Of a stretch of DNA of 27,230 bases, positions 1-25,390 are shown in pieces (position 1 is the first letter of the stretch; every line of letters starts with the position of its first letter). Position numbers and translations under genes: made by a program. The stretch lies in IMG/VR virus record IMGVR_UViG_3300032253_000031, positions 1-27,230 of that record. One strand, 5' to 3'. The stretch is from a virus (taxonomy: Duplodnaviria; Caudoviricetes). Under the pieces are notes generated by a model. The model did not search any database. It was not told the DNA's origin and saw nothing but the letters and a program-made list of their open reading frames with translations.

Positions 1-122
1 GAATAGATAATAATGGAGATTATAAACCAGATAACTGCCGGTGGGCAACAAGAAAAGAGCAAGCAAATAACCGTAGGAAAAGATCAAAAAATAAACCAAA
101 ACCATTCACTGAGGGGGAATGA
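1..122 (+). CDS. HNH endonuclease, C-terminal part (gene starts before the window)
   Basis: The frame from nt 3 reads [25 protein letters not shown]...EGE*. This matches the typical phage HNH homing endonuclease signature (RIDNxGxYxPxNCRWATxxEQxxNRR). The stop overlaps the next start (ATGA). Not in the ORF track. Confidence 0.85.
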
Positions 123-334
123 ATATGACAGACGAAACATGGAAAACTAAAGATGGCAGAGAGATTCTAGTGTCGGATATGACGGAAGCCCACGCAAAGA
201 ACTGTCTATGCCTTCTCATAAGAAGAATTAGAGGGGCGCAAGATAGGGCGGCTTATGGACCGGTTATGAGTAAAGAGAGCTGGGATTTTGGAATGCCGCC
301 CCAAGGCTGTGATGATTACGGGAGTTTAAAATGA
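119..334 (+). CDS. Phage hypothetical protein
   Basis: 71 aa, GAGGGGG Shine-Dalgarno (SD), ATGA coupling at both ends. The [21 protein letters not shown] pattern is recalled from small phage proteins. Confidence 0.75.
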
Positions 335-513
335 ACTACATACCACAAGATATCCAAGACATGCAGGAGGTTCTACCGCCAGATTATCAGAAATGGCTGG
401 ATGAACTGGAACCAACAACAAGCCAGCGTGACGAATCATTAGAGGCGTTAATTGCTGAAACAGTGGAGTTAGATAATGCATATAAGCCAGATGACAACAC
501 TCATCAACAATGA
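331..513 (+). CDS. Small acidic hypothetical protein
   Basis: GGGAG SD, coupled to the upstream stop, 60 aa. Confidence 0.65.
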   Translation: MNYIPQDIQDMQEVLPPDYQKWLDELEPTTSQRDESLEALIAETVELDNAYKPDDNTHQQ

Positions 514-730
514 TCCTGTTGATTATAAGAAGATTAACAGGGCTGTAGCTAGTGTTTTTGATGAGATACATAATGATACGCAAGATGAAATCCAATGCGC
601 TGAAAAACTAAAGATGGTGTATTTTGACCTGTCAGCCGATGAGAAGATGATGCTAAATAACAGGTTAAAAGATTTAAGATATGACAAAAGACAATTAAAC
701 ACCATGCTAAAAGAATACTTGAATTTATAG
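476..730 (+). CDS. Hypothetical protein
   Basis: GGAG SD upstream of the ATG at 476, 84 aa, helical composition. Confidence 0.65.
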   Translation: MHISQMTTLINNDPVDYKKINRAVASVFDEIHNDTQDEIQCAEKLKMVYFDLSADEKMMLNNRLKDLRYDKRQLNTMLKEYLNL

Positions 731-779
731 AGTTCGTTTGCTCTCTTTTAAAAGCATACACATAAAACAGGAAACTGAT

Positions 780-1196
780 ATGAACATCAATGAGATGAAA
801 GAAACTAAGTACCTTAAGAAGGAAGATTGTACGCCTGACAAGCTGGTAACTATTGCAAGAGTCGTACAAGAAGATTTGTCAATGGAAAACCAGCCCCCAG
901 AAATGAAATGGGTAATGTTTATTCAGGAAAATATTGCATCAGACGGTACAAATAAGCCGTTTGTGCTTAATTGGACTAACATACAGCTATGTGCCCAGGC
1001 TACAGGCTCGGAAAATACTGATGACTGGCCTGGAAAGAAGATCGTTTTATTTAATGATCCAAACGTTTCATTTGGGGGCAAATTGACAGGTGGCATTCGT
1101 ATTCGTGCGGCAAAGAATCAGCCCGAGCAACAGTTGCAAAACCAGCCTAGTTCTGGTGATGTAAATTTCAATGATTTAGACGAACCGCCATTTTAA
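780..1196 (+). CDS. Putative single-stranded DNA-binding protein
   Basis: Probable start is the ATG at 780 (AGGA SD). Beta-rich core (KYLKKED...GKKIVLFNDPNVSFGGKLTGGIRIR), Q/P-rich linker and an acidic C-terminal DLDEPPF tail like SSB tips. Confidence 0.65.
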   Translation: MNINEMKETKYLKKEDCTPDKLVTIARVVQEDLSMENQPPEMKWVMFIQENIASDGTNKPFVLNWTNIQLCAQATGSENTDDWPGKKIVLFNDPNVSFGGKLTGGIRIRAAKNQPEQQLQNQPSSGDVNFNDLDEPPF

Positions 1197-1215
1197 CCGA
1201 GTCATAGTAGTAATT

Positions 1216-1242
1216 CCCTCTCCTAATGGGGGAGGGCTTCTT
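1216..1242 (+). terminator. Probable intrinsic terminator or hairpin after the SSB-like gene
   Basis: Stem CCCTCTCC-TAATG-GGGGAGGG followed by CTTCTT (weak U tract). Confidence 0.5.
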
Positions 1243-1255
1243 AAGAGGATAGATT

Positions 1256-1459
1256 ATGTGCAATAAGGTTGGCTATGAAACAAAGCAAGAAGCCAAAAAG
1301 GATGCTGAATTTATTACAAAGTCATCCAGAACACAGAAGCAGAAAATTAGTAAGCCAAAACATGGTAAGAAGATGCGTCCATATAAATGCAAATATTGCG
1401 GATTATGGCACTTAACAACGAAAAAGCAGTTTAAGTGGAGTAAATCCAAATCGGGGTGA
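1256..1459 (+). CDS. Small basic zinc-finger-like phage protein
   Basis: N-terminal Cys plus RPYKCKYCGLWHLT (CxxC...H). GAGGA SD. Confidence 0.7.
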   Translation: MCNKVGYETKQEAKKDAEFITKSSRTQKQKISKPKHGKKMRPYKCKYCGLWHLTTKKQFKWSKSKSG

Positions 1460-1653
1460 ATATTATGGAATACAAAGACACACCAGAAAGCCTAACCGAG
1501 CCAGATAAGCCGGTTACCCGCCATAGACCAAAGGGCCGTGGGATTAATCCATTAGCTGATTTTATGGCGCATGAAAGTAAGCTGTTTCTTAAGTCATTGC
1601 CGGGGGAGACACTTACCCGTTCGAGGCATTCAACTTTAGCGAATAACGACTAA
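1456..1653 (+). CDS. Hypothetical protein
   Basis: Coupled to the upstream stop (GTGA); alternative ATG at 1465. Confidence 0.5.
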   Translation: MNIMEYKDTPESLTEPDKPVTRHRPKGRGINPLADFMAHESKLFLKSLPGETLTRSRHSTLANND

Positions 1654-1683
1654 GATTAAAGAACATTAAAGAGGTAGAAAGCC

Positions 1684-1812
1684 ATGAGCAACCAACAAGA
1701 AAAGAAAATCGAAGCATTAGCAAAGCTAAACCGTGATGGAACAATTAAATTGATTAAGCCAGAACTACGAAAAAGCTTGTATGAGGGCACTAATTTAAAG
1801 GCTGATAAGTGA
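1684..1812 (+). CDS. Small hypothetical protein (42 aa)
   Basis: GAGGT SD. Reads MSNQQEKKIEALAKLNRDG...ADK*, with the stop overlapping the next GTG start. Not in the ORF track. Confidence 0.6.
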   Translation: MSNQQEKKIEALAKLNRDGTIKLIKPELRKSLYEGTNLKADK

Positions 1813-2054
1813 GTAAGGCATCAAGGCACATGGGAAGAGTGGCCGGTCTATCTTGTGCAGCGTGTGATAATTCGCCAGTCGAAGTGCATCACATTAGGAC
1901 TGAGCGCATAAAAGACCCGTTTCTTACCATTCCGCTGTGTTTAGAGTGCCATAGAGGCTCTTTCTCGATTCACATGAGTAAGGAGCAGTTTACGAATGTT
2001 TATGGCTCTGAGCTGCATCTATTGGCCGCGACACTAATGAGGCTGGAAAGTTGA
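1809..2054 (+). CDS. Ref/DUF968-like HNH-type nuclease
   Basis: HMGRVAGLSCAAC...EVHHIR...TIPLCLECH: CxxC, HH and PLCxxCH motifs. Confidence 0.75.
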   Translation: MSKASRHMGRVAGLSCAACDNSPVEVHHIRTERIKDPFLTIPLCLECHRGSFSIHMSKEQFTNVYGSELHLLAATLMRLES

Positions 2055-2419
2055 GAAATCACCTAGAACATGACCACCAAAAGGCATTATTCCAATGGGC
2101 GAGCCACATACCCGAATTAGAATGGATGTTTGCTATACCTAACGGAGCCGTTTTAGCAGGTGACAAGGGCAAAAGAGCTAGACAGATGAACTCACTTAAG
2201 GCCACCGGTTTAAAGCCTGGGGTATGGGATATATTTTTGCCCGTTGCTAAGCATGGCTATCACGGCTTATTTATCGAAATGAAGGCCGGTAAGAACACGC
2301 TAAGCGACAAACAAGAAGACTTTGGTAATAACGTGCATCGTGCTGGTTATCTAACGCATACGTGCTATGACTGGCTAGAAGCTAAAAGAGTAATAACTGA
2401 CTATATGAGGTTTGAGTGA
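2051..2419 (+). CDS. VRR-NUC domain nuclease (Holliday junction resolvase-like)
   Basis: EHDHQKALFQW...FAIPNG...GLKPGVWDIFL...GLFIEMKAGKNTLSDKQ: PD-(D/E)xK VRR-NUC pattern. Confidence 0.9.
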   Translation: MRNHLEHDHQKALFQWASHIPELEWMFAIPNGAVLAGDKGKRARQMNSLKATGLKPGVWDIFLPVAKHGYHGLFIEMKAGKNTLSDKQEDFGNNVHRAGYLTHTCYDWLEAKRVITDYMRFE

Positions 2420-2589
2420 TGTGTGAATACTGCAACGATACCCAAAAAGTTAAAAACAAACCCTGTCAGCATTGTGTGGGTGATCTTAAATCTGATCAAC
2501 CTAAAATAGAGTTAATGACGCTACTACAGGATAAGAATTTTAAGGAAGACTTAAGAAATGCCTTTAATCACGATGGGGTGACGAAGTGA
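2419..2589 (+). CDS. Small zinc-ribbon protein (56 aa)
   Basis: MCEYCNDTQKVKNKPCQHC... has two CxxC pairs. GAGG SD, TGATG coupling. Not in the ORF track. Confidence 0.65.
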   Translation: MCEYCNDTQKVKNKPCQHCVGDLKSDQPKIELMTLLQDKNFKEDLRNAFNHDGVTK

Positions 2590-2933
2590 ATAAGATAGAG
2601 CTGGAAGTTCCAATTACCGCACTCTCTTGCGATAAACGCGTTAAACCGGTCAAGTTGTCGTTACCATTTTATATAGCGAGACTTGGGAAATATTTCCATC
2701 GGGTAAGATCATCATCTAATCATTGGCGCAATGGAAAATATTCTCATACATCTGTTAGCTTTTGGTGTGGTGGCATTGGGTTTGTTGGTGATAAAGGGAC
2801 TTTGCATGGTGAAGTTCACGAAAACGGCACCTTATGCGCAACATGCGAAGGTAGAGCCGTTGGGGCCGGATTGGATGGAGTAAGAATGATAAATGGTAGA
2901 TCGGTAATGTACTCGCCGAGAATTCAAAGATAA
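2586..2933 (+). CDS. Hypothetical protein, possibly zinc-binding
   Basis: 115 aa with H...WCG...LCATC; GTGA coupling. Confidence 0.65.
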   Translation: MNKIELEVPITALSCDKRVKPVKLSLPFYIARLGKYFHRVRSSSNHWRNGKYSHTSVSFWCGGIGFVGDKGTLHGEVHENGTLCATCEGRAVGAGLDGVRMINGRSVMYSPRIQR

Positions 2934-2948
2934 TTAGGATATAAAATT

Positions 2949-3224
2949 ATGTGTGATTGCGTAACAATGTGCTGGATATTTGACCAGATAACAGAAAACG
3001 GAAGGTTTCCTGTGCCTAACCATCATCCAAAGTGCGAAGACTACAAAGCAAAAAGATATATCAGATTATTTGACCCTGATTCCGGCGATGGATTTATAGA
3101 TACTTGTGAGAATCAGTACGGATACATGTCATCTGACGAATTTGACTCTATGAATTTAAGACAAGAAGACGTAGTTCTAACAGAAGATCAATTTTTGAAA
3201 CTTAAAGAATTTACGGGGTTTTAA
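2949..3224 (+). CDS. Hypothetical protein
   Basis: AGGA SD; CxCxxxC...HHPKC N-terminus. Confidence 0.7.
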   Translation: MCDCVTMCWIFDQITENGRFPVPNHHPKCEDYKAKRYIRLFDPDSGDGFIDTCENQYGYMSSDEFDSMNLRQEDVVLTEDQFLKLKEFTGF

Positions 3225-3410
3225 ATGAATAACCTAATACACGGCCTACTACTGGCTATCTGTTTATTTGCTTGCGGTGCTGAGGCTTGTGATGGTGTAT
3301 GGACAGATGAGGTGTGGGCAGAGCTTAGAAAAGAGCAGCTTGAGAAGGCGTTTACTGAGTCGATTAACAAAGAATGCAGCCAATCCTGGTTTGATTGTGT
3401 AGATGAATAG
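3225..3410 (+). CDS. Small exported protein
   Basis: N-terminal hydrophobic signal-like segment (LIHGLLLAICLFACGAEA), Cys-containing mature part. Confidence 0.55.
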   Translation: MNNLIHGLLLAICLFACGAEACDGVWTDEVWAELRKEQLEKAFTESINKECSQSWFDCVDE

Positions 3411-3419
3411 GTGGATAAA

Positions 3420-3533
3420 ATGAATGAGAACGCAATGGTAGCTATAATGATCAGTTGGCTTTGTATATTTGCTATTTTGTGCGGCGGAGAGCCAGATATA
3501 TTGGATGGTTTAATTAAAATAGTGAACCAGTAA
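3420..3533 (+). CDS. Small membrane protein (37 aa)
   Basis: MNENAMVAIMISWLCIFAILCGGEPDILDGLIKIVNQ; AGGTGG SD. Not in the ORF track. Confidence 0.65.
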   Translation: MNENAMVAIMISWLCIFAILCGGEPDILDGLIKIVNQ

Positions 3534-3560
3534 CATCAATCACATAATAGGGGATAGGTA

Positions 3561-3779
3561 ATGGCTGAGAAATTAACAAAAACGGCATTAAAAGACGAAC
3601 TAACAAGAAAGATTAATTGGTTTGAAGATTCATACGGCTTTAATATGGAATATAACTCTGCGCTTGACATGGATGACAAAGGAATACACCTACCTATCGC
3701 TTATGGACGTTATTTAGCTCTAACCGATATGAGAAGTCAGATTGAAAACAACCGATTTATTAACGGTTATTGTGCATAA
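3561..3779 (+). CDS. Hypothetical protein
   Basis: AGGGGA/AGGT SD, 72 aa. Confidence 0.7.
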   Translation: MAEKLTKTALKDELTRKINWFEDSYGFNMEYNSALDMDDKGIHLPIAYGRYLALTDMRSQIENNRFINGYCA

Positions 3780-3853
3780 CAGAACATAAATAATACGTTA
3801 CCGGTATATGTGGCAGTATTTTAATGAAATAGTACTAGAAAGGTAGGTGATAT

Positions 3854-3967
3854 ATGAATAATGAACAGTTTGGACAGTTAAAAACAAAGATAGACGCTAT
3901 ATTTGCTACCCTAATTAGCATATTAATAATATTAACCTGCATCATGGTTATGGTGGGTGATATATGA
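3854..3967 (+). CDS. Small membrane peptide (37 aa)
   Basis: MNNEQFGQLKTKIDAIFATLISILIILTCIMVMVGDI; AGGT SD; one hydrophobic helix. Confidence 0.6.
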   Translation: MNNEQFGQLKTKIDAIFATLISILIILTCIMVMVGDI

Positions 3968-4186
3968 TTGTTGAAAACCGAGCTATAAATATGATTAATT
4001 CATATCCTAAAGATCACAGATTTACATGTATCAGCCTGTACGGACAAACAGGAATACACTTATAACCGTGTTACTGATGAAATCCCGCATATTAAACGCA
4101 CGTTGAAGGCAAAGCGTAAGCCGATCAAACATAAGCCGTTCACAGATGTGATGAGTATTTTTAATTCAATGCCAAAACCGTATTAG
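3964..4186 (+). pseudogene. Possibly frameshifted or internally deleted small gene
   Basis: A 33-aa ORF (3964-4065) with a good SD overlaps a second frame lacking an early ATG. That frame reads like protein (VTDEIPHIKRTLKAKRKPIKHKPFTDVMSIFNSMPKPY*) to the TAG at 4186. Confidence 0.35.
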
Positions 4187-4785: not shown

Positions 4786-4929
4786 TTAATAGTAAATCAC
4801 GGCAACATCATGGCGGTAATCGTTTTCGTTTGTCCAGTGTAGATAAGAGTCGTAAATACGCAACCGGTCTGCTAATGTGCCGGTTATGCTGTATTGTCGA
4901 TACCAATTTTTAAAGCCACTATATTGCAT
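4786..4929 (-). CDS. Small hypothetical protein (47 aa)
   Basis: TAATG coupling to the SGNH gene; reads MQYSGFKNWYRQYSITG...VAVIYY*. Confidence 0.5.
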   Translation of the reverse strand: MQYSGFKNWYRQYSITGTLADRLRIYDSYLHWTNENDYRHDVAVIYY

Positions 4930-6386
4930 TAACTTGGGGCCGCTATAGCCATATACTGTCCATCACCACCAGCTAGCCTTGAATAGTTCGGCGGATTAAG
5001 TATCAATCTATTTATTTCATCGGCAATATATTCACCCCAAAGCGCCTGACCCTTAAGGTTTGGATGGCGACCGGTTGATACCTCATACGATGACAGGGAA
5101 TGATCAGGGTCTGCACCGAATTTAACAGAGCCATATATAATACCCATATCATTTATTGCCTGCTGTCTTGCAACTTCAGATTCAACATATCCTTGGGCTG
5201 TTGTCGCACTGAGGGCGATATTATCCCACTCCACACACCAAACAGGTATGATTCCTTCGCTCATAAGGTTAACAGAGATATCATGTATTGATGTCCTTAG
5301 CGTGAGCGATGCTGTGGCTCCATCATTAATAACGGAACCGAACATCACACAGAAATGCGGTCTATGGCGTTTAACTTGATCCTGATCATTGCCTGTGCCC
5401 GTAGTAAATGCAGTGGCAGTGCCATTGATAATGCGAGACTCCTGATAGGCAATAGCCTGTGCAGAATACCCAGTCGAAAATATTTCAGCCTCAATATTTA
5501 GGTTTTTTAAAATGGATGGATTCAAAGAGTCTACAGTTCCGTATTCATATATTAAGCCTGGGTATCCACCCGCAATACCATTATCAAATGATTTTCTATT
5601 TAAAGCCTGCCTGTCAACGTATGAGTGACCCACCATTGCAATTCTGCATTCCACGGCTCGGCTTCGTGTGAAAGGTCGGTTAATCATTACCAGCTCTTTC
5701 ATGCTAACTTGCGTAGGGCTGCGCTGAAAATCAATCAGATTAAATTCAGTGTCGTAGGTGTCGATAAATCTAATATTTACCAGATAACCGTTCAGAAATA
5801 TACGCTGAACGTTCCCGACCCAATCAATACCATAATTTACATACCCAGCACCATCAGCTAAACCTGCATGGAATACTGTATAAGCATCAACGGCATCATA
5901 AACCTGAGATCCTGCCTGATCAAAACAAGGATTAGTTAACGCTTCATTGCCGTCATAATCTGATACAAGCTGATTATACCTGTCTGTTGCTAATGCTGAG
6001 GTTTGCACCCTGACAATAACCGGAGAACCTATTCCACCAGAGACTGGTGTACTCTGAATTACTATGCCTAATGATGCACCAATTGCATACAAATCTGCTA
6101 AATGTATTTTTATTTGCAATGCGCCACGAGCCATGTATGCAGATCGGATTGCAGAATAGCGCCCTGCTGCATCTGCCATTGTTAAATCTATTTTATTTGC
6201 AACTGTAGCTCTCAAGCCACCGTTAACAATAGTTGCACCATTAGGGGTTACCCAGCTATTGCCATCATAGCCACGCCCAAGCCCTTCAAGCGTATCATCA
6301 GTTGTTGTCCATCCGGCTTTATACAAAACACCGTCAACACCCACTTTTGCTTTGCTAAAGTCTACATCATAAGTATTATAAGACAT
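4929..6386 (-). CDS. Putative virion-associated SGNH/GDSL esterase with an N-terminal lectin/LamG-like domain
   Basis: Block I IAMVGHSYV, block III MFGSVIND, block V TGRHPNLKGQALWGEYIA. The N-terminal half is beta-rich (YGIDWVGNVQRIFLNGYLV). Located distal to the tail genes. Confidence 0.65.
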   Translation of the reverse strand: MSYNTYDVDFSKAKVGVDGVLYKAGWTTTDDTLEGLGRGYDGNSWVTPNGATIVNGGLRATVANKIDLTMADAAGRYSAIRSAYMARGALQIKIHLADLYAIGASLGIVIQSTPVSGGIGSPVIVRVQTSALATDRYNQLVSDYDGNEALTNPCFDQAGSQVYDAVDAYTVFHAGLADGAGYVNYGIDWVGNVQRIFLNGYLVNIRFIDTYDTEFNLIDFQRSPTQVSMKELVMINRPFTRSRAVECRIAMVGHSYVDRQALNRKSFDNGIAGGYPGLIYEYGTVDSLNPSILKNLNIEAEIFSTGYSAQAIAYQESRIINGTATAFTTGTGNDQDQVKRHRPHFCVMFGSVINDGATASLTLRTSIHDISVNLMSEGIIPVWCVEWDNIALSATTAQGYVESEVARQQAINDMGIIYGSVKFGADPDHSLSSYEVSTGRHPNLKGQALWGEYIADEINRLILNPPNYSRLAGGDGQYMAIAAPS

Positions 6387-14662: not shown

Positions 14663-15012
14663 AAATTTACACGGTTATTTATAAACAATACGGCCTGGTC
14701 AATAATGTAGGGGGCTTTCTGATATAAAACTAACGCCGCCTCTTTGGAAAAATCAAGATCAACACCTCGCCACCCTAATGTGGCATCAAGTATCATACTT
14801 AGATTTTCCTCATCTACATCGCCGCCTTCATCTTTTGTAATCATGCGCCGCACTGCTTCGTGCTGATTTCTACGCGCGTTATCCGTCCAGATTTTAGAGT
14901 CTTGCCCTGCGTAAGTTATGAAAAAATCCGTTTTACTTCCGAATTCATCCAAAACCTGCATTTCAGCCCCTGCATTATGTCTATCAGCCGTGTATAAGCT
15001 TGTGATATCCAT
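14650..15012 (-). CDS. Tail assembly chaperone (gpG-like)
   Basis: Lies between the tail tube and tape measure; motifs AGQDSKIW, TLGWRGV, C-terminal NRVNF. Confidence 0.85.
   Translation of the reverse strand: MDITSLYTADRHNAGAEMQVLDEFGSKTDFFITYAGQDSKIWTDNARRNQHEAVRRMITKDEGGDVDEENLSMILDATLGWRGVDLDFSKEAALVLYQKAPYIIDQAVLFINNRVNFIVS
14662..14668 (-). other. Programmed -1 ribosomal frameshift site
   Basis: In-frame A AAT TTT fits X XXY YYZ, three sense codons before the TAG. The -1 frame is open to 14330. Confidence 0.85.
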
Positions 15013-15404
15013 TATGCAGCCGTACCGATAGTTAGCGCGCCGTTACCTGTAAATGTAAAAGCCTGGGTAACTGTTGAGTCATTCGCTACTGATCGACTAA
15101 TACCGGTCACTGTGGCCGTACCTGAGTAAAGCGCATCACCAGTAGTTAGACCTTCAGGCCCAAGACGAAGGGTAACGCTTGCGCCAATGGTTAAAGCTAC
15201 CTGACCATTAGTATCTGTATCATCCCAGTAGCAATTAACTGAGCCGGACCAGCTATTTAAGCCAGCTAAATGCGTCATTGCAGTATCGCCTAGAACTGTG
15301 TCGTCTACTGTATTGGCTGTTTCTTCAATGCTGAAATCGAGAACTTCTGCAACTGCATTTGCCCCAATTTCAACCGCGCCAGCATTACCGTTAAATGTTG
15401 CCAT
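15012..15404 (-). CDS. Major tail tube protein
   Basis: 130 aa, minimal tube-fold pattern (GAVEIGANAVAEVLDFSIEETAN...AGLNSWSGS...FTFTGNGAL); follows the tail terminator. Confidence 0.9.
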   Translation of the reverse strand: MATFNGNAGAVEIGANAVAEVLDFSIEETANTVDDTVLGDTAMTHLAGLNSWSGSVNCYWDDTDTNGQVALTIGASVTLRLGPEGLTTGDALYSGTATVTGISRSVANDSTVTQAFTFTGNGALTIGTAA

Positions 15405-18563: not shown

Positions 18564-19265
18564 TTAGATTACTTTGCCGCCGTTTAAAGCGAATTTTTTG
18601 CGCTCAGATTGAGATAAATTATCAAAATCACTTCGCGCCATTTCTTTTGCAGCACCGCCGCCCTTGTTACCATCACCGTTGGCACCGCCACCAGAGGACT
18701 GATTACCCTTTAATAACCCGCTATATGCTGGGTTATTAGCGAATTCTCTTTGTAAGTCTTCAAGACTTGAAACTGTTAGATTTCCGTCTTTGTCTGTTAC
18801 TTTTAGCTCTCCGTCAACAAACTTTAAACGGGACTTTATAGAGCTAGATAAAATTGTTGCGTTTTGTGCGCCGTCCTTGATATTGTCAGCCAGGGTAAAG
18901 GCTATGTTTAACGCCTCTTTACTGATGTTATTGTCAGCATCGCGTTTGTCCCTTTCCGTCAAGCCTGTTTTAAGCTCTTCGTTTTGCTCTAGCTGTGATT
19001 TATACAACTGCTCAAAATCACCGGCCTTTTTAAGCGCATCTTCTGAGCTAGTTTTAGCCAAAGATTCAGCCTCTTCTCTGGCCTTCTTTGCTGCTTTCGT
19101 TTCGCCTAGTAATTCATCATTCTTAGCTAGTACTTTTGTTAATTGGCTTTGTAAATCAGCGATTACCGCTGTCTGATCTTCTCCGCCACCGCCTCCGCCA
19201 TCTCCGCTATCATCGCCTTCTTTTTGATTAAGCTTATATTTTAGGAATTGGTTTCTAAATTTCAT
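18564..19265 (-). CDS. Capsid scaffolding protein
   Basis: Probable ATG at 19265. Gly run, long coiled coil (AKNDELLGETKAAK), SSGGGA linker and a C-terminal MARSDFDNLS helix-turn-helix. Confidence 0.85.
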   Translation of the reverse strand: MKFRNQFLKYKLNQKEGDDSGDGGGGGGEDQTAVIADLQSQLTKVLAKNDELLGETKAAKKAREEAESLAKTSSEDALKKAGDFEQLYKSQLEQNEELKTGLTERDKRDADNNISKEALNIAFTLADNIKDGAQNATILSSSIKSRLKFVDGELKVTDKDGNLTVSSLEDLQREFANNPAYSGLLKGNQSSGGGANGDGNKGGGAAKEMARSDFDNLSQSERKKFALNGGKVI

Positions 19266-19295
19266 AATTTTCTCTTTGGTCACTGACCGTTTTAG

Positions 19296-19378
19296 TTATC
19301 CACAGGATATACACAAATAATAACATACCTATTAACATATACACAACTTATGCACAAGATTTACACAGGTTATCCACA
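19296..19378 (+). promoter_or_regulatory. Array of six co-oriented DnaA boxes
   Basis: TTATCCACA 19296, ATATACACA 19307, ATATACACA 19337, TTATGCACA 19348, ATTTACACA 19359, TTATCCACA 19370. Consensus is TTWTNCACA; the period is 11 bp within each sub-array. Confidence 0.85.
19317..19346 (-). promoter_or_regulatory. Predicted promoter for the scaffold/capsid genes
   Basis: Extended -10 TG-T-TATTAT (19325-19317), with TTGTGT 18 bp upstream. Confidence 0.45.
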
Positions 19379-19411: not shown

Positions 19412-19431
19412 CATTTATGCGAGCTAATACT

Positions 19432-19635
19432 ATGAACACAGAAGAACTATATAAGCGAAAGCTAAAGCTATCGACAGATATCACTGGCGCAGTTTCAAAG
19501 TTGTATGATGATTTCGTACAGGAAACAGGAGAATGCCCCGAATATATCGGTATCAACTTAATCGACGTGACAAAGGTTGATAGCGATCGAAGAATTCGGG
19601 CTATTTGTAATACTGACGTGGATATTAGAATATGA
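19432..19635 (+). CDS. Small protein with a GnsA/GnsB-like pattern
   Basis: MNTEEL...helix...FVQETGECPEYI...DVDIRI resembles, from memory, E. coli GnsA/B (MNIEEL...NTGKEVSEI...DVKIKI). Upstream alternative ATG at 19417. Confidence 0.5.
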   Translation: MNTEELYKRKLKLSTDITGAVSKLYDDFVQETGECPEYIGINLIDVTKVDSDRRIRAICNTDVDIRI

Positions 19636-19943
19636 ACGAGATAACCAAAGACACGCTGACAAAGGCTTATAAGCCGTATGATGTCATAAGCGACATAAAA
19701 GGCAATGTGGGATTTATTCAAGAAGTTTCAGTTAATGATAGTCAGGATGGATTTGATGACCAAATATCATACTCCATAAAATGGATAGCTGGATATGGTG
19801 ATAGATCAGCATGGTATGGACATAATGAATTGAAATTTCACTGCAATATATTTATATCAATTGCTGAGTGCTCTTGCCATCCTATGGGACGAAATGCTCC
19901 TTATGTTGAGGCTTTATTTAATCACCGGAAAAAGGCAGGCTAA
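19632..19943 (+). CDS. Hypothetical protein, possible SH3-like barrel
   Basis: YKPYDVI...GFIQEV...YSIKW...AWY.HNEL pattern; ATGA-coupled. Confidence 0.6.
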   Translation: MNEITKDTLTKAYKPYDVISDIKGNVGFIQEVSVNDSQDGFDDQISYSIKWIAGYGDRSAWYGHNELKFHCNIFISIAECSCHPMGRNAPYVEALFNHRKKAG

Positions 19944-19944
19944 T

Positions 19945-20313
19945 ATGAATAAACTAAAAAAACGCCAACGCCTAAAGCAAATACTTGTAATTAAAAAGAC
20001 TCTTGAGTTAGGCAACAACATGTTCAAGGCAATAAATAGTTTGCCTGATAACCAGCTTAAGCAGCTAATGGTAGAGCAAATTAAATCTAGTTATTTCGCT
20101 AGAATGGCTGAAATAACTAGAATACCCGCAAAGATACTAAAATCTCATGGTTTACGAATTGACAAAAGAAGGCAGCGACGATTTGTTTATAAAGGAAAGA
20201 GACCGGCTCTTGTTTTCCCTAATATAAACCCTGTCGGCGTTCTTAAAATTGGAAATGAGATAATTGGCACTATTGATGGGGTCAACTATGTTAGAGGCGA
20301 AATAGAGGAATAA
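19945..20313 (+). CDS. Basic hypothetical protein (122 aa)
   Basis: Likely start is the ATG at 19945 (AGGCAGG SD, just after the upstream stop), not the TTG at 19861. Confidence 0.65.
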   Translation: MNKLKKRQRLKQILVIKKTLELGNNMFKAINSLPDNQLKQLMVEQIKSSYFARMAEITRIPAKILKSHGLRIDKRRQRRFVYKGKRPALVFPNINPVGVLKIGNEIIGTIDGVNYVRGEIEE

Positions 20314-20315
20314 CA

Positions 20316-20798
20316 ATGAACAGAAGAGACTTTTTAAAATCACTATCGGCTTTATGCGCTGCGCCAATAATCGCTAAGATACCTGATGTATCGGCAAACG
20401 CTAATAATCCAATCGAGCTCAAGCCGGTTCAAAATTTAGTTATTCCTGAATCGTTTTACACAAACCCTAATATCGGCGGGTTATATAAAGACGGGGAATT
20501 GATCGCTGCTTTTTCTGCATGGGAAGTAACTTCAACAGCCAATTCACACGGATTTATACATAATAGTGGTGGAATTACTAGAATACCATCCTTTATGAGC
20601 TACGAAGGAGAAGGTGAATTATTAGAAATAAATGATTCGGCAATGGTTACCTGTAATGAACGCTATAACGTTAAGCTTTTTAATGGCGAGATTATTATGA
20701 CAATGAATGATGTTATTATTGTACAAAAAATAATATCATTAGATGAATTAAATAGAGTTCATGTTTCTTTTAATTCATCTAATCTTAAGTATAGCTAA
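20316..20798 (+). CDS. Tat-signal protein with a tail-tube-like domain
   Basis: GAGGA SD; MNRRDFLKSLSALCAAPIIA twin-arginine motif. The C-terminal ~110 aa align by eye with the tube protein at 15012-15404. Confidence 0.6.
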   Translation: MNRRDFLKSLSALCAAPIIAKIPDVSANANNPIELKPVQNLVIPESFYTNPNIGGLYKDGELIAAFSAWEVTSTANSHGFIHNSGGITRIPSFMSYEGEGELLEINDSAMVTCNERYNVKLFNGEIIMTMNDVIIVQKIISLDELNRVHVSFNSSNLKYS

Positions 20799-21823
20799 TC
20801 ACCAAACACTAACGGATATCTAGCCCTTAAACCATCAAGACCGATAGTAGACCCGGTGTGCTCATCGGTGAATTGCTCAATCTTAAGCTTACCTGACCTA
20901 AACAGGCTGGCTCTCTCTGGCCCTAACGCCTCATCCTGGAATCCTTTTGATTGTTTCTTTAACCATCCCCCGTAAGTTGTATTTGCGCTTGTTCTACCCG
21001 TTGTATCACCTACCTGTGGGCGCATACCTTTAAGCCTGACTATCGTAAAGGCATCTTTAACTACTGGGATGGTTGTTGATCTGCAAGAAAAATGAGCAGG
21101 CGGTAATGGGCCTGACTTTACAGTGTAAACTTTACCGTCACGACCCGCACACACTAAACTTGTGCGGCTGTCTAATGTTGATACCCATTCGTAACCATCT
21201 AATATATCCGAGTTTTCATCGTAGGTTAGCTCACGCGCAACACTTGATGAGTGATTAATTATTGTTCGTGTTAGCGATTGAATCTGACGGTTTTGCTTAA
21301 CGCCCATTAACTCACTGACTTTTTTGCTTATCTCTGGTGTGGTATCACCTAAAACAATAGAGTCATTAACTAACTGCATAATCTCTTTTGATTTATTCTT
21401 ACAAAAATCACTTAACGCGCCATCAACTAGAATGTTTTTGCCGTCAATAACCATCGGCTTAACTCTTAATGCTACCGCTAATTGCTCATAGATTGGCAAT
21501 CTAATATCAGTGCCTTCCTTTGTGACTGAATCAATCATTCTTCCTGTAAATTCGGTCTCTTGGGTAGCAAAATCTAACGCATTGCTTTTAATCGAGTCAC
21601 TTATATTACCGAACATATCTGAGTAAATGCCATCAAGTGATATTCTAAGTGCGTTTAAACGGTTGGCTCTAAATTCGGTAGGCTCTTGAGATAGCCTTGC
21701 CAATACATCAAGCCTAAGCCTATTAAGTAGCTTTTTAGCATCGTTAGCCTGTCCCGCCGCGTATCGCTGTATAAATACTTGGTGACGGCTCGATGCTTGA
21801 ACAAGGAAGTCTTCAGCAGACAT
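20795..21823 (-). CDS. Minor head morphogenesis protein (SPP1 gp7/Mu F-like)
   Basis: LTRTIINH, YEWVSTLDSRTSLVCAGRDG and PPAHFSCRST motifs. Confidence 0.92.
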   Translation of the reverse strand: MSAEDFLVQASSRHQVFIQRYAAGQANDAKKLLNRLRLDVLARLSQEPTEFRANRLNALRISLDGIYSDMFGNISDSIKSNALDFATQETEFTGRMIDSVTKEGTDIRLPIYEQLAVALRVKPMVIDGKNILVDGALSDFCKNKSKEIMQLVNDSIVLGDTTPEISKKVSELMGVKQNRQIQSLTRTIINHSSSVARELTYDENSDILDGYEWVSTLDSRTSLVCAGRDGKVYTVKSGPLPPAHFSCRSTTIPVVKDAFTIVRLKGMRPQVGDTTGRTSANTTYGGWLKKQSKGFQDEALGPERASLFRSGKLKIEQFTDEHTGSTIGLDGLRARYPLVFGD

Positions 21824-24952: not shown

Positions 24953-24981
24953 AGTATATTAAAATGGAGAACATTTATCAA
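24953..24981 (-). promoter_or_regulatory. Sigma70-type promoter upstream of terS
   Basis: TTGATA (24981-24976), 17 bp spacer, TATACT (24958-24953). Confidence 0.65.
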
Positions 24982-25390
24982 ATAAACTACTTTCATGATT
25001 GTTGACCACATAACCATTAACATCAAGCAAGTAATGGATCATTTCATGCCTAATTGTTCTGCTATAAACAAGCATATACTCAACTTCAATAACGTTATCA
25101 TGCCTATAATATAGCCCATTATAATCTTGTATTTCATTCACAACAGCAATGTATGGCGCTGTATTTGATGTTAATCTAGTACAATCTTGAACAGCAAACC
25201 AAATACTTTTTATTGTTTGCAGGTTAATGTCACCATGCAGCAAAATAACATCATTATCAATACTGATCTTTAGCTCTGTTTCATAATCAATTAAATTATA
25301 TTGATCTTTGTCCCTACCTGATACTATGTCAACCTCATGGTTACATCCTAAAATAAAGATTGATATAGCTAATAATATTAATAATCTCAT
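24959..25390 (-). CDS. Lipoprotein with an HExxH zinc-metallopeptidase motif
   Basis: Lipobox MRLLILLAISIFILG-C; YNGLYY strand followed by TIRHEMIHYLL and a downstream His; AAGGGG SD. Confidence 0.75.
   Translation of the reverse strand: MRLLILLAISIFILGCNHEVDIVSGRDKDQYNLIDYETELKISIDNDVILLHGDINLQTIKSIWFAVQDCTRLTSNTAPYIAVVNEIQDYNGLYYRHDNVIEVEYMLVYSRTIRHEMIHYLLDVNGYVVNNHESSLFDKCSPF

Follow-up and report, generated by a model that had tools for sequence, protein, structure and literature searches.

P0001 (160 aa; 20316..20798, plus strand) is the product of a real, conserved and undescribed kind of phage gene, in which a twin-arginine (Tat)-type leader is joined by a linker to a whole domain that, judged from profile comparisons and a predicted structure, is homologous to siphophage tail tubes. 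It is encoded in the window, as the whole stretch of 27,230 nt analysed here is called, a siphophage record with a completeness estimate of 73% from a sequencing run labelled as microbial mat metagenome. The closest cultured phages, compared by their capsids, are 45–52% identical and have Proteobacteria as hosts. The ORF had been picked out in the first-pass annotation and appears genuine, with an ATG start, three relatives and a ribosome-binding site (GAGGA; 20305..20309, plus strand) 6 nt 5′ of the ATG and immediately 5′ of the stop codon that ends the preceding ORF. Its product consists of the leader (aa 1–27; 20316..20396), an unconserved linker (aa 28–48; 20397..20459), with pLDDT below 50 over residues 13–44, and the tail-tube/Hcp-fold domain (aa 49–160; 20460..20795). 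This composition, as originally read from the letters, is supported by both the family profile and the predicted structure.

The minus strand of the window carries a siphophage morphogenesis module of terminases, portal, MuF-like minor head protein, scaffold, capsid and neck, which continues with tail terminator, tube, chaperones and tape measure; the plus strand holds small early-type genes at 1–4000. The true tail tube of the phage, P0002 (130 aa; 15012..15404, minus strand; phrog_1407, E 1.8e-13), is placed between the tail terminator and the tail chaperones. The P0001 gene is the last of four plus-strand ORFs that form a cassette (19417–20798), which contigs of the one DNA run listed as containing it, possibly the source, span without variants or joints; no RNA run was listed. 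ORF 1 (72 aa; 19417..19635) has no assigned function and a 69% identical homologue in a related locus, L337; ORF 2 (103 aa; 19632..19943) has weak small-barrel look-alikes only, and the basic ORF 3 (122 aa; 19945..20313) has no match above cut-off in Pfam, PHROG or NCBIfam. On the minus strand the cassette is flanked by genes for a MuF/SPP1-gp7-like minor head protein (20795..21823; PF04233, TIGR01641, phrog_241) and a head scaffolding protein (18564..19283; phrog_206). The P0001 gene had been described as antisense within the head genes; antisense it is, but it lies between the MuF-like and scaffold genes and not inside one, overlapping the former by 4 nt only, at the stop codons. Its GC content is 34% (GC3 27%) versus 42% (36–40%) in the flanking head genes. 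Scans for sigma-70 promoters (8 versus 7.3) and terminators (2 versus 1.3) gave matches at chance level, and a Pfam/PHROG scan of the approximately 50 ORFs of this 73% complete record found no TatA, integrase or repressor.

The P0001 gene is absent from all 42 related locus rows that hold both flanks, some of which are near-copies, and in 35 of these the gap between the MuF-like and scaffold genes is 135 nt or less. Three of the 42 hold other antisense small-gene cassettes at this site (L337:11700-12290, L341:7821-8149 and L345:13762-14904), the first of which carries the ORF 1 homologue in the same orientation. The MuF–scaffold site is an accessory-gene hotspot in the clade, with genes oriented like early genes. 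Upstream of the cassette, and likewise 5′ of the divergent scaffold gene, are six same-strand DnaA-box-like 9-mers (19296..19378, plus strand; three exact, three with one mismatch); four of their five gaps are 11 bp. At least one exact DnaA box is located less than 200 nt from the scaffold start in 6/42 related rows, cassette-less relatives among them, and L337 has six exact boxes near its scaffold start. The array in the window is possibly an origin, a DnaA-titration site or a DnaA-controlled promoter.

The Tat consensus is (S/T)-R-R-x-F-L-K near the N-terminus, and the RRxFLK of this family fits it. P0001 begins MNRRDFLK, followed by an uncharged run of 12 residues (S9–A20), K21 and the putative sites V25-S-A27 and A27-N-A29. 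Thus the near-canonical motif, hydrophobic stretch and possible AxA site noted at first reading are present, and they form a conserved pattern in all four family members, with R3, R4, F6, L7, K8, A15, P17 and A27 invariant. The V/I-x-A peptidase-type sequence pattern is kept in 4/4 around the invariant A27 column, which suggests real cleavage after A27. P0001 scores below threshold against Pfam TAT_signal PF10518 (19.9 bits, cut-off 22.7) and TIGR01409 (14.1, cut-off 16.7); the PF10518 cut-off is passed by one relative (23.3), with the other three of the four leaders below it. The uncharged stretch is 12–13 residues long in the family versus a median of 15 across 158 phage leaders. P0001 is likely, though unproven, to be a Tat substrate.

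An exhaustive phmmer search over 1.84 billion representatives found three relatives, P0003–P0005 (E 6e-11, 1e-10 and 7e-5; 30–38% identity). All four proteins are singletons in the clustering, and they share the same length (~160 aa), the same leader–linker–domain plan, 19 invariant columns and an invariant motif, G54-G-L-Y-K-D59, which true tubes do not have. Word-based protein searches returned the query alone or the same four members. Shorter family forms were absent among 73 candidates and family members among 126 candidate stretches of genome contigs; the best match in cultured phages had E 0.5 (query P0003), and a metagenome locus search over 31 of 64 parts yielded the window's own contig and otherwise only matches to the leader. 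P0001 itself has no Pfam, PHROG or NCBIfam match except the sub-threshold Tat signal, and the family profile had no match at E ≤ 10 among PDB sequences.

A relationship to the phage's own tube was initially drawn from 9 identities in 48 columns. The count was reproduced but not its value as evidence, since at least 9 identities were reached in 300/300 shuffles when the best one-gap 48-column identities were counted. Additionally, the local score between the two proteins (p = 0.38) and BLASTP (E = 14) are at chance level, and pairwise evidence for the link was rejected. An HMM built from 69 tube relatives likewise scores P0001 at chance; with it P0003 and P0005 beat 3000/3000 shuffles, while P0001 and P0004 alone do not. 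Homology to tubes is seen instead with the profile formed with the three relatives. Compared with 23 tubes by HHalign, the family profile gave 92.8%, E 3.9e-7 over 98 columns, and its score of 32.6 was reached in 0/100 column shuffles (maximum 17.75). The same profile recovers the alignment register first proposed (E61/N16, SYEG/SWSG, VTCN/LTIG, VHVSF/QAFTF). Among 6,095 ORFs, a set tube-rich by construction, a four-domain profile ranks 81/89 tube ORFs above the first non-tube. By these profiles the P0001 domain is homologous to tail tubes.

Structure prediction, which had been suggested as a check, gave a tube fold over residues 49–160. An ESM Atlas model matches tube clusters with TM 0.64–0.76 over 107–115 residues (~48–160), and AF2 on the four-row alignment reached pLDDT 60 (2/5 models); a single-sequence AF2 model (pLDDT 32) was discarded. 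Foldseek matches are nearly all tubes and Hcp, the best in the PDB having E 4e-3, and nine BFVD matches have E ≤ 0.001, with a tube at the top. By VIA-align the model reaches Z 8.7 to 8GTB (109 aligned, rmsd 4.1), Z 8.7 to 2GUJ and Z 8.1 to Hcp 8Z7K; PilZ domains come close (Z 8.2), though with only 80–93 residues covered. Both the sequence and the predicted structure indicate a complete tube domain rather than a fragment.

P0001 had also been called a paralogue of the phage's tube; that the two belong to the same family stands, whereas a closer relationship to this tube than to others does not. P0001 is 14.5% identical to the own tube, versus a mean of 15.1% and a best of 20% across 23 tubes; in rank the own tube comes 78th. 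In the tree the four family proteins group together (100/99) outside the 23 tubes, with long branches and an unsure attachment point; their end branches are 0.9–2.1 versus a median of 0.16. On identity, rank and tree position a recent duplication of the own tube was rejected. The region equivalent to the ring-stacking β-hairpin of tubes (aa 69–98; 20520..20609, plus strand), placed by alignment and with low pLDDT at 76–92, keeps its length in all four proteins (27–30 versus 31 aa) and has lost the conserved tube motif, and two loops that are conserved in tubes are shortened. A functional tube is encoded in the tail operon and has no leader, whereas P0001 is encoded antisense among head genes and has one; we know of no tail tube that carries a signal peptide. 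P0001 is a tube homologue and probably not a functional tube.

Three leader patterns searched in IMG/VR gave 227 loci with 197 distinct ORFs, the 174 closed ones having a median of 104 aa. The 158 that were kept (RR intact, 55–299 aa) fall into 139 cargo groups, and 150 of their 152 non-redundant members were scanned. PHROG matches at E ≤ 0.005 were found for 19 of the 150 and none for the other 131; 14 are named, namely eight capsid pieces, three fibre or spike pieces, one scaffold and one structural piece, which makes 13 virion pieces in all, and a lipase. Among 120 upstream neighbours used as a control, 11 are named, including three particle parts and two terminases, and one of the three particle-part matches is itself a Tat-leader capsid piece. 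Six of these 11 (helicases, HNH, thymidylate synthase or Lar-like) point to an early or replication context. The virion share among named ORFs is thus 13/14 versus 3/11 (Fisher p 0.002), or versus 5/11 with terminases counted (p 0.02); among all ORFs the enrichment is weak, at 13/150 versus 3/120 (p 0.04) or versus 5/120 (p 0.22).

Tube profiles found no convincing match among the surveyed cargoes. A second whole-tube cargo suspected by eye (L125:901-1380, plus strand, 160 aa) came top of the 158 against the family profile, with a probability of ~6% only, and is no more than a weak lead. At least two Tat-like starts within 1.8 kb occur in 12/227 survey loci, and at L172:601-1373 (minus strand) two Tat-leader ORFs are adjacent, the upstream one with capsid matches. 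In the relative L032, whose tube is 63% identical, another Tat-leader ORF of 95 aa (L032:19318-19605, minus strand) lies with genes oriented like early ones; of the 74 ORFs of L032, the tail hub matches this ORF best, at E 0.04 only.

The most probable single reading, though a tentative one, is that P0001 is a decoy made early for fold-sensing immune receptors, which it would tether or evict via Tat. Avs sensors read the core folds of divergent monomers, with Avs16 contacting the tube β-hairpin (PMC13581612). The hairpin is also what DSR2 binds, and the tube mimic DSAD1 blocks this receptor (PMC10973363); in the tube itself the hairpin stacks the rings (PMC10973363, PMC13581612). Receptor ligands include both capsid and tube; tail fibre and spike are absent from the listed Avs ligands (PMC13581612). 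Tat substrates fold and acquire partners in the cytoplasm, and Tat co-exports such bound partners, known as hitchhiker export, and accommodates substrates in the size range of 20–70 Å (PMC4273604).

The leader of such a decoy would engage TatBC, and the domain would fold as a monomer that has ceased to polymerise with the tube of its own phage. In the cytoplasm this domain would be bound by receptors that read folds, such as those of the Avs16 or DSR2 type, and a bound receptor would stay at the membrane, be exported along with P0001 or be degraded, so that neither oligomerisation nor cell killing would follow. Receptors would be tethered or removed before the phage makes its real tube, and late transcription across the locus would shut the cassette down. 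Of all this, the conserved leader (4/4), the tube homology and the variable antisense cassette oriented like early genes are what was observed. The retained hairpin length and the early or replication context of the neighbours in the survey also speak for this reading. Weight shifts towards receptors as the target because the fold is kept while the tube-family motifs are lost and because the cargoes of the class are mostly capsid. A protein whose fold persists while its assembly motifs are gone would fit a target that reads folds, and the assembly of its own phage would be spared. Likewise, since capsid pieces have no evident periplasmic target, binding in the cytoplasm is the more likely common logic.

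Several points stand against a receptor decoy. A whole tube fold could trigger a receptor rather than block it. Receptor complexes probably exceed 20–70 Å, so that true co-export is doubtful and tethering must be assumed. The uncharged stretch is short and three of four leaders are sub-threshold; 131/150 cargoes are without a PHROG match and the enrichment is weak over all ORFs; and 3/13 virion cargoes are fibre or spike, outside the listed Avs ligands. A generalised form, which is rather doubtful, is a modular toolkit in which a Tat leader is joined to a copy of any virion part sensed by bacteria (capsid piece, tube or others) and the receptor is evicted or immobilised. Each copy would bind the matching pattern-recognition receptor by its fold and ride the hitchhiker route of the host Tat system; P0001 would be the whole-tube member.

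Close behind the receptor decoy, although unlikely when taken alone, ranks the poisoning of assembly in competing phages, the main functional idea of the first-pass annotation. At the edge of a rival's tube monomers or rings the domain would join on, fail to stack and, being tethered or exported via Tat, leave tailless particles; it would be made from a prophage or early in infection, and late transcription across the cassette would spare the carrier. The retention of a whole tube domain with an altered hairpin motif and two shortened loops is consistent with such a role. The layout is also exactly that of the prophage defence gene tai in phi80, an antisense gene of the late operon that Q-driven transcription reduces (PMC11364771); by this analogy the position favours assembly poisoning over a receptor decoy. 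Tab is a late-operon moron that blocks tails (PMC10884400). Temperate kin may exist, as TerL relatives at 54–64% identity are found in large contigs of Pseudomonadota MAGs; however, no integrase or repressor is present among the ORFs scanned in the 73% complete record, and none of the 126 candidate stretches places a family member in a genome contig. Additionally, at 15–26% identity to tubes and ~30% among relatives, specific co-assembly surfaces would be hard to keep.

Superinfection exclusion at the envelope is distinctly improbable. P0001 would be exported and cleaved after A27, and from within the periplasm it would then target the tail tip or the tape-measure protein of phages that try to enter, either singly or assembled into a ring. 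The V/I-x-A pattern and invariant A27 in all four members fit this, envelope exclusion proteins such as Ltp and SieA are known, and the three fibre or spike cargoes among the 13 would suit an envelope role. However, eight of the 14 named cargoes of the class are capsid pieces, and capsids stay out of the periplasm. A hexamer ring is probably above the Tat size range, so that assembly could take place only after export.

It is less probable again that the leader serves mainly for something other than export, as an inner-membrane anchor, for SlyD-like chaperone recruitment or for clogging of Tat. In the clogging version the domain would capture a large viral assembly, with membrane leak and abortive infection as the outcome. 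The short h-region and sub-threshold leader scores are compatible with this, and, according to a Tat review, SlyD has a high affinity for RR leaders and phiX174 hijacks it (PMC13673990). That one leader type spans 139 cargo groups (158 ORFs) may mean that function lies chiefly in the leader. However, a conserved peptidase-type site together with a foldable whole domain bearing G54-G-L-Y-K-D59 argues that export and cargo both matter. That P0001 has no selected function, being encoded by a drifting tube gene that ended up behind a mobile Tat-like leader, is very unlikely, for although the branches are very long, the four proteins are singleton clusters and the gene is absent from 42/42 related loci, these proteins at 30–38% identity keep an open frame, length, plan, 19 invariant columns and a family motif that true tubes lack, and the P0001 gene has a strong ribosome-binding site.

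P0001 is homologous over its whole domain to siphophage tubes (PF06199 Phage_tail_2/phrog_1407; 8GTB, the tube of vB_DshS-R4C), but adds a Tat-type leader and a linker and lies outside the tail operon on the opposite strand. T6SS Hcp, which is not known to carry a signal peptide, has the fold predicted for P0001 and leaves the cytoplasm, as P0001 would, but does so in the form of the T6SS tube; the sequence profile of P0001 points to phage tubes. With class I Tat substrates (PF10518, TIGR01409) it has in common RRxFLK, an uncharged stretch, a peptidase-type site and a folded passenger; unlike them it is phage-encoded, with a virion-fold passenger and a short h-region. To our knowledge, DSAD1 of SPbeta, an anti-DSR2 protein, has no export signal. 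DSAD1 is a tube look-alike that occupies a receptor, as is proposed for P0001; it is, however, a functional mimic with an eight-strand, one-helix structure of its own, whereas P0001 is, by its profile, a true tube homologue with a leader (PMC10973363).

Tai (phi80 and PICIs; PMC11364771) is likewise an accessory gene antisense in a late operon and plausibly aimed at tails, and Tab of JBD26, also a late-operon accessory, has no similarity to known domains (PMC10884400). The P0001 gene is such an accessory gene in a late operon; in the accessible portions of those reports neither Tai nor Tab is described as a tube homologue or Tat substrate (PMC11364771, PMC10884400), and, in contrast to them, no anti-protein was identified at the P0001 locus. 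Under the two leading readings P0001 would work, by analogy, like DSAD1 or Tai, and it is a member of neither group. The Tat review names no phage-encoded Tat substrate in its four passages on phages (PMC13673990). A Tat leader joined to a virion fold was not found described in the partially available literature, although annotation tables in supplements could list such genes, nor in passages of that review or of a counter-defence editorial, both from 2026 (PMC13673990, PMC13728456).

The design is not a one-off, as four distant proteins share it and many small viral ORFs begin with a Tat-type leader, their named cargoes being nearly all virion pieces. Since receptors read virion proteins by fold, escape by point mutation is not easy for a phage. 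A fold decoy routed to an export machine would, if the favoured reading is true, be a general answer to fold sensing and a new principle of counter-defence; if P0001 instead poisons the assembly of rivals, it would represent a new mechanism of phage competition.

Two tandem, near-identical tail tube genes are present at L075:8413-9214, L080:10001-10802 and their kin. Within the window, a 143-aa ORF 5′ of the small terminase gene (24959-25390, minus strand) has a lipoprotein-like leader (phrog_21339, E 0.003) and an HExxH motif, and may encode an envelope metallopeptidase. A 485-aa ORF after the tail genes (4929-6386, minus strand) has no Pfam/PHROG match, and its C-terminal half appears SGNH-hydrolase-like by eye.
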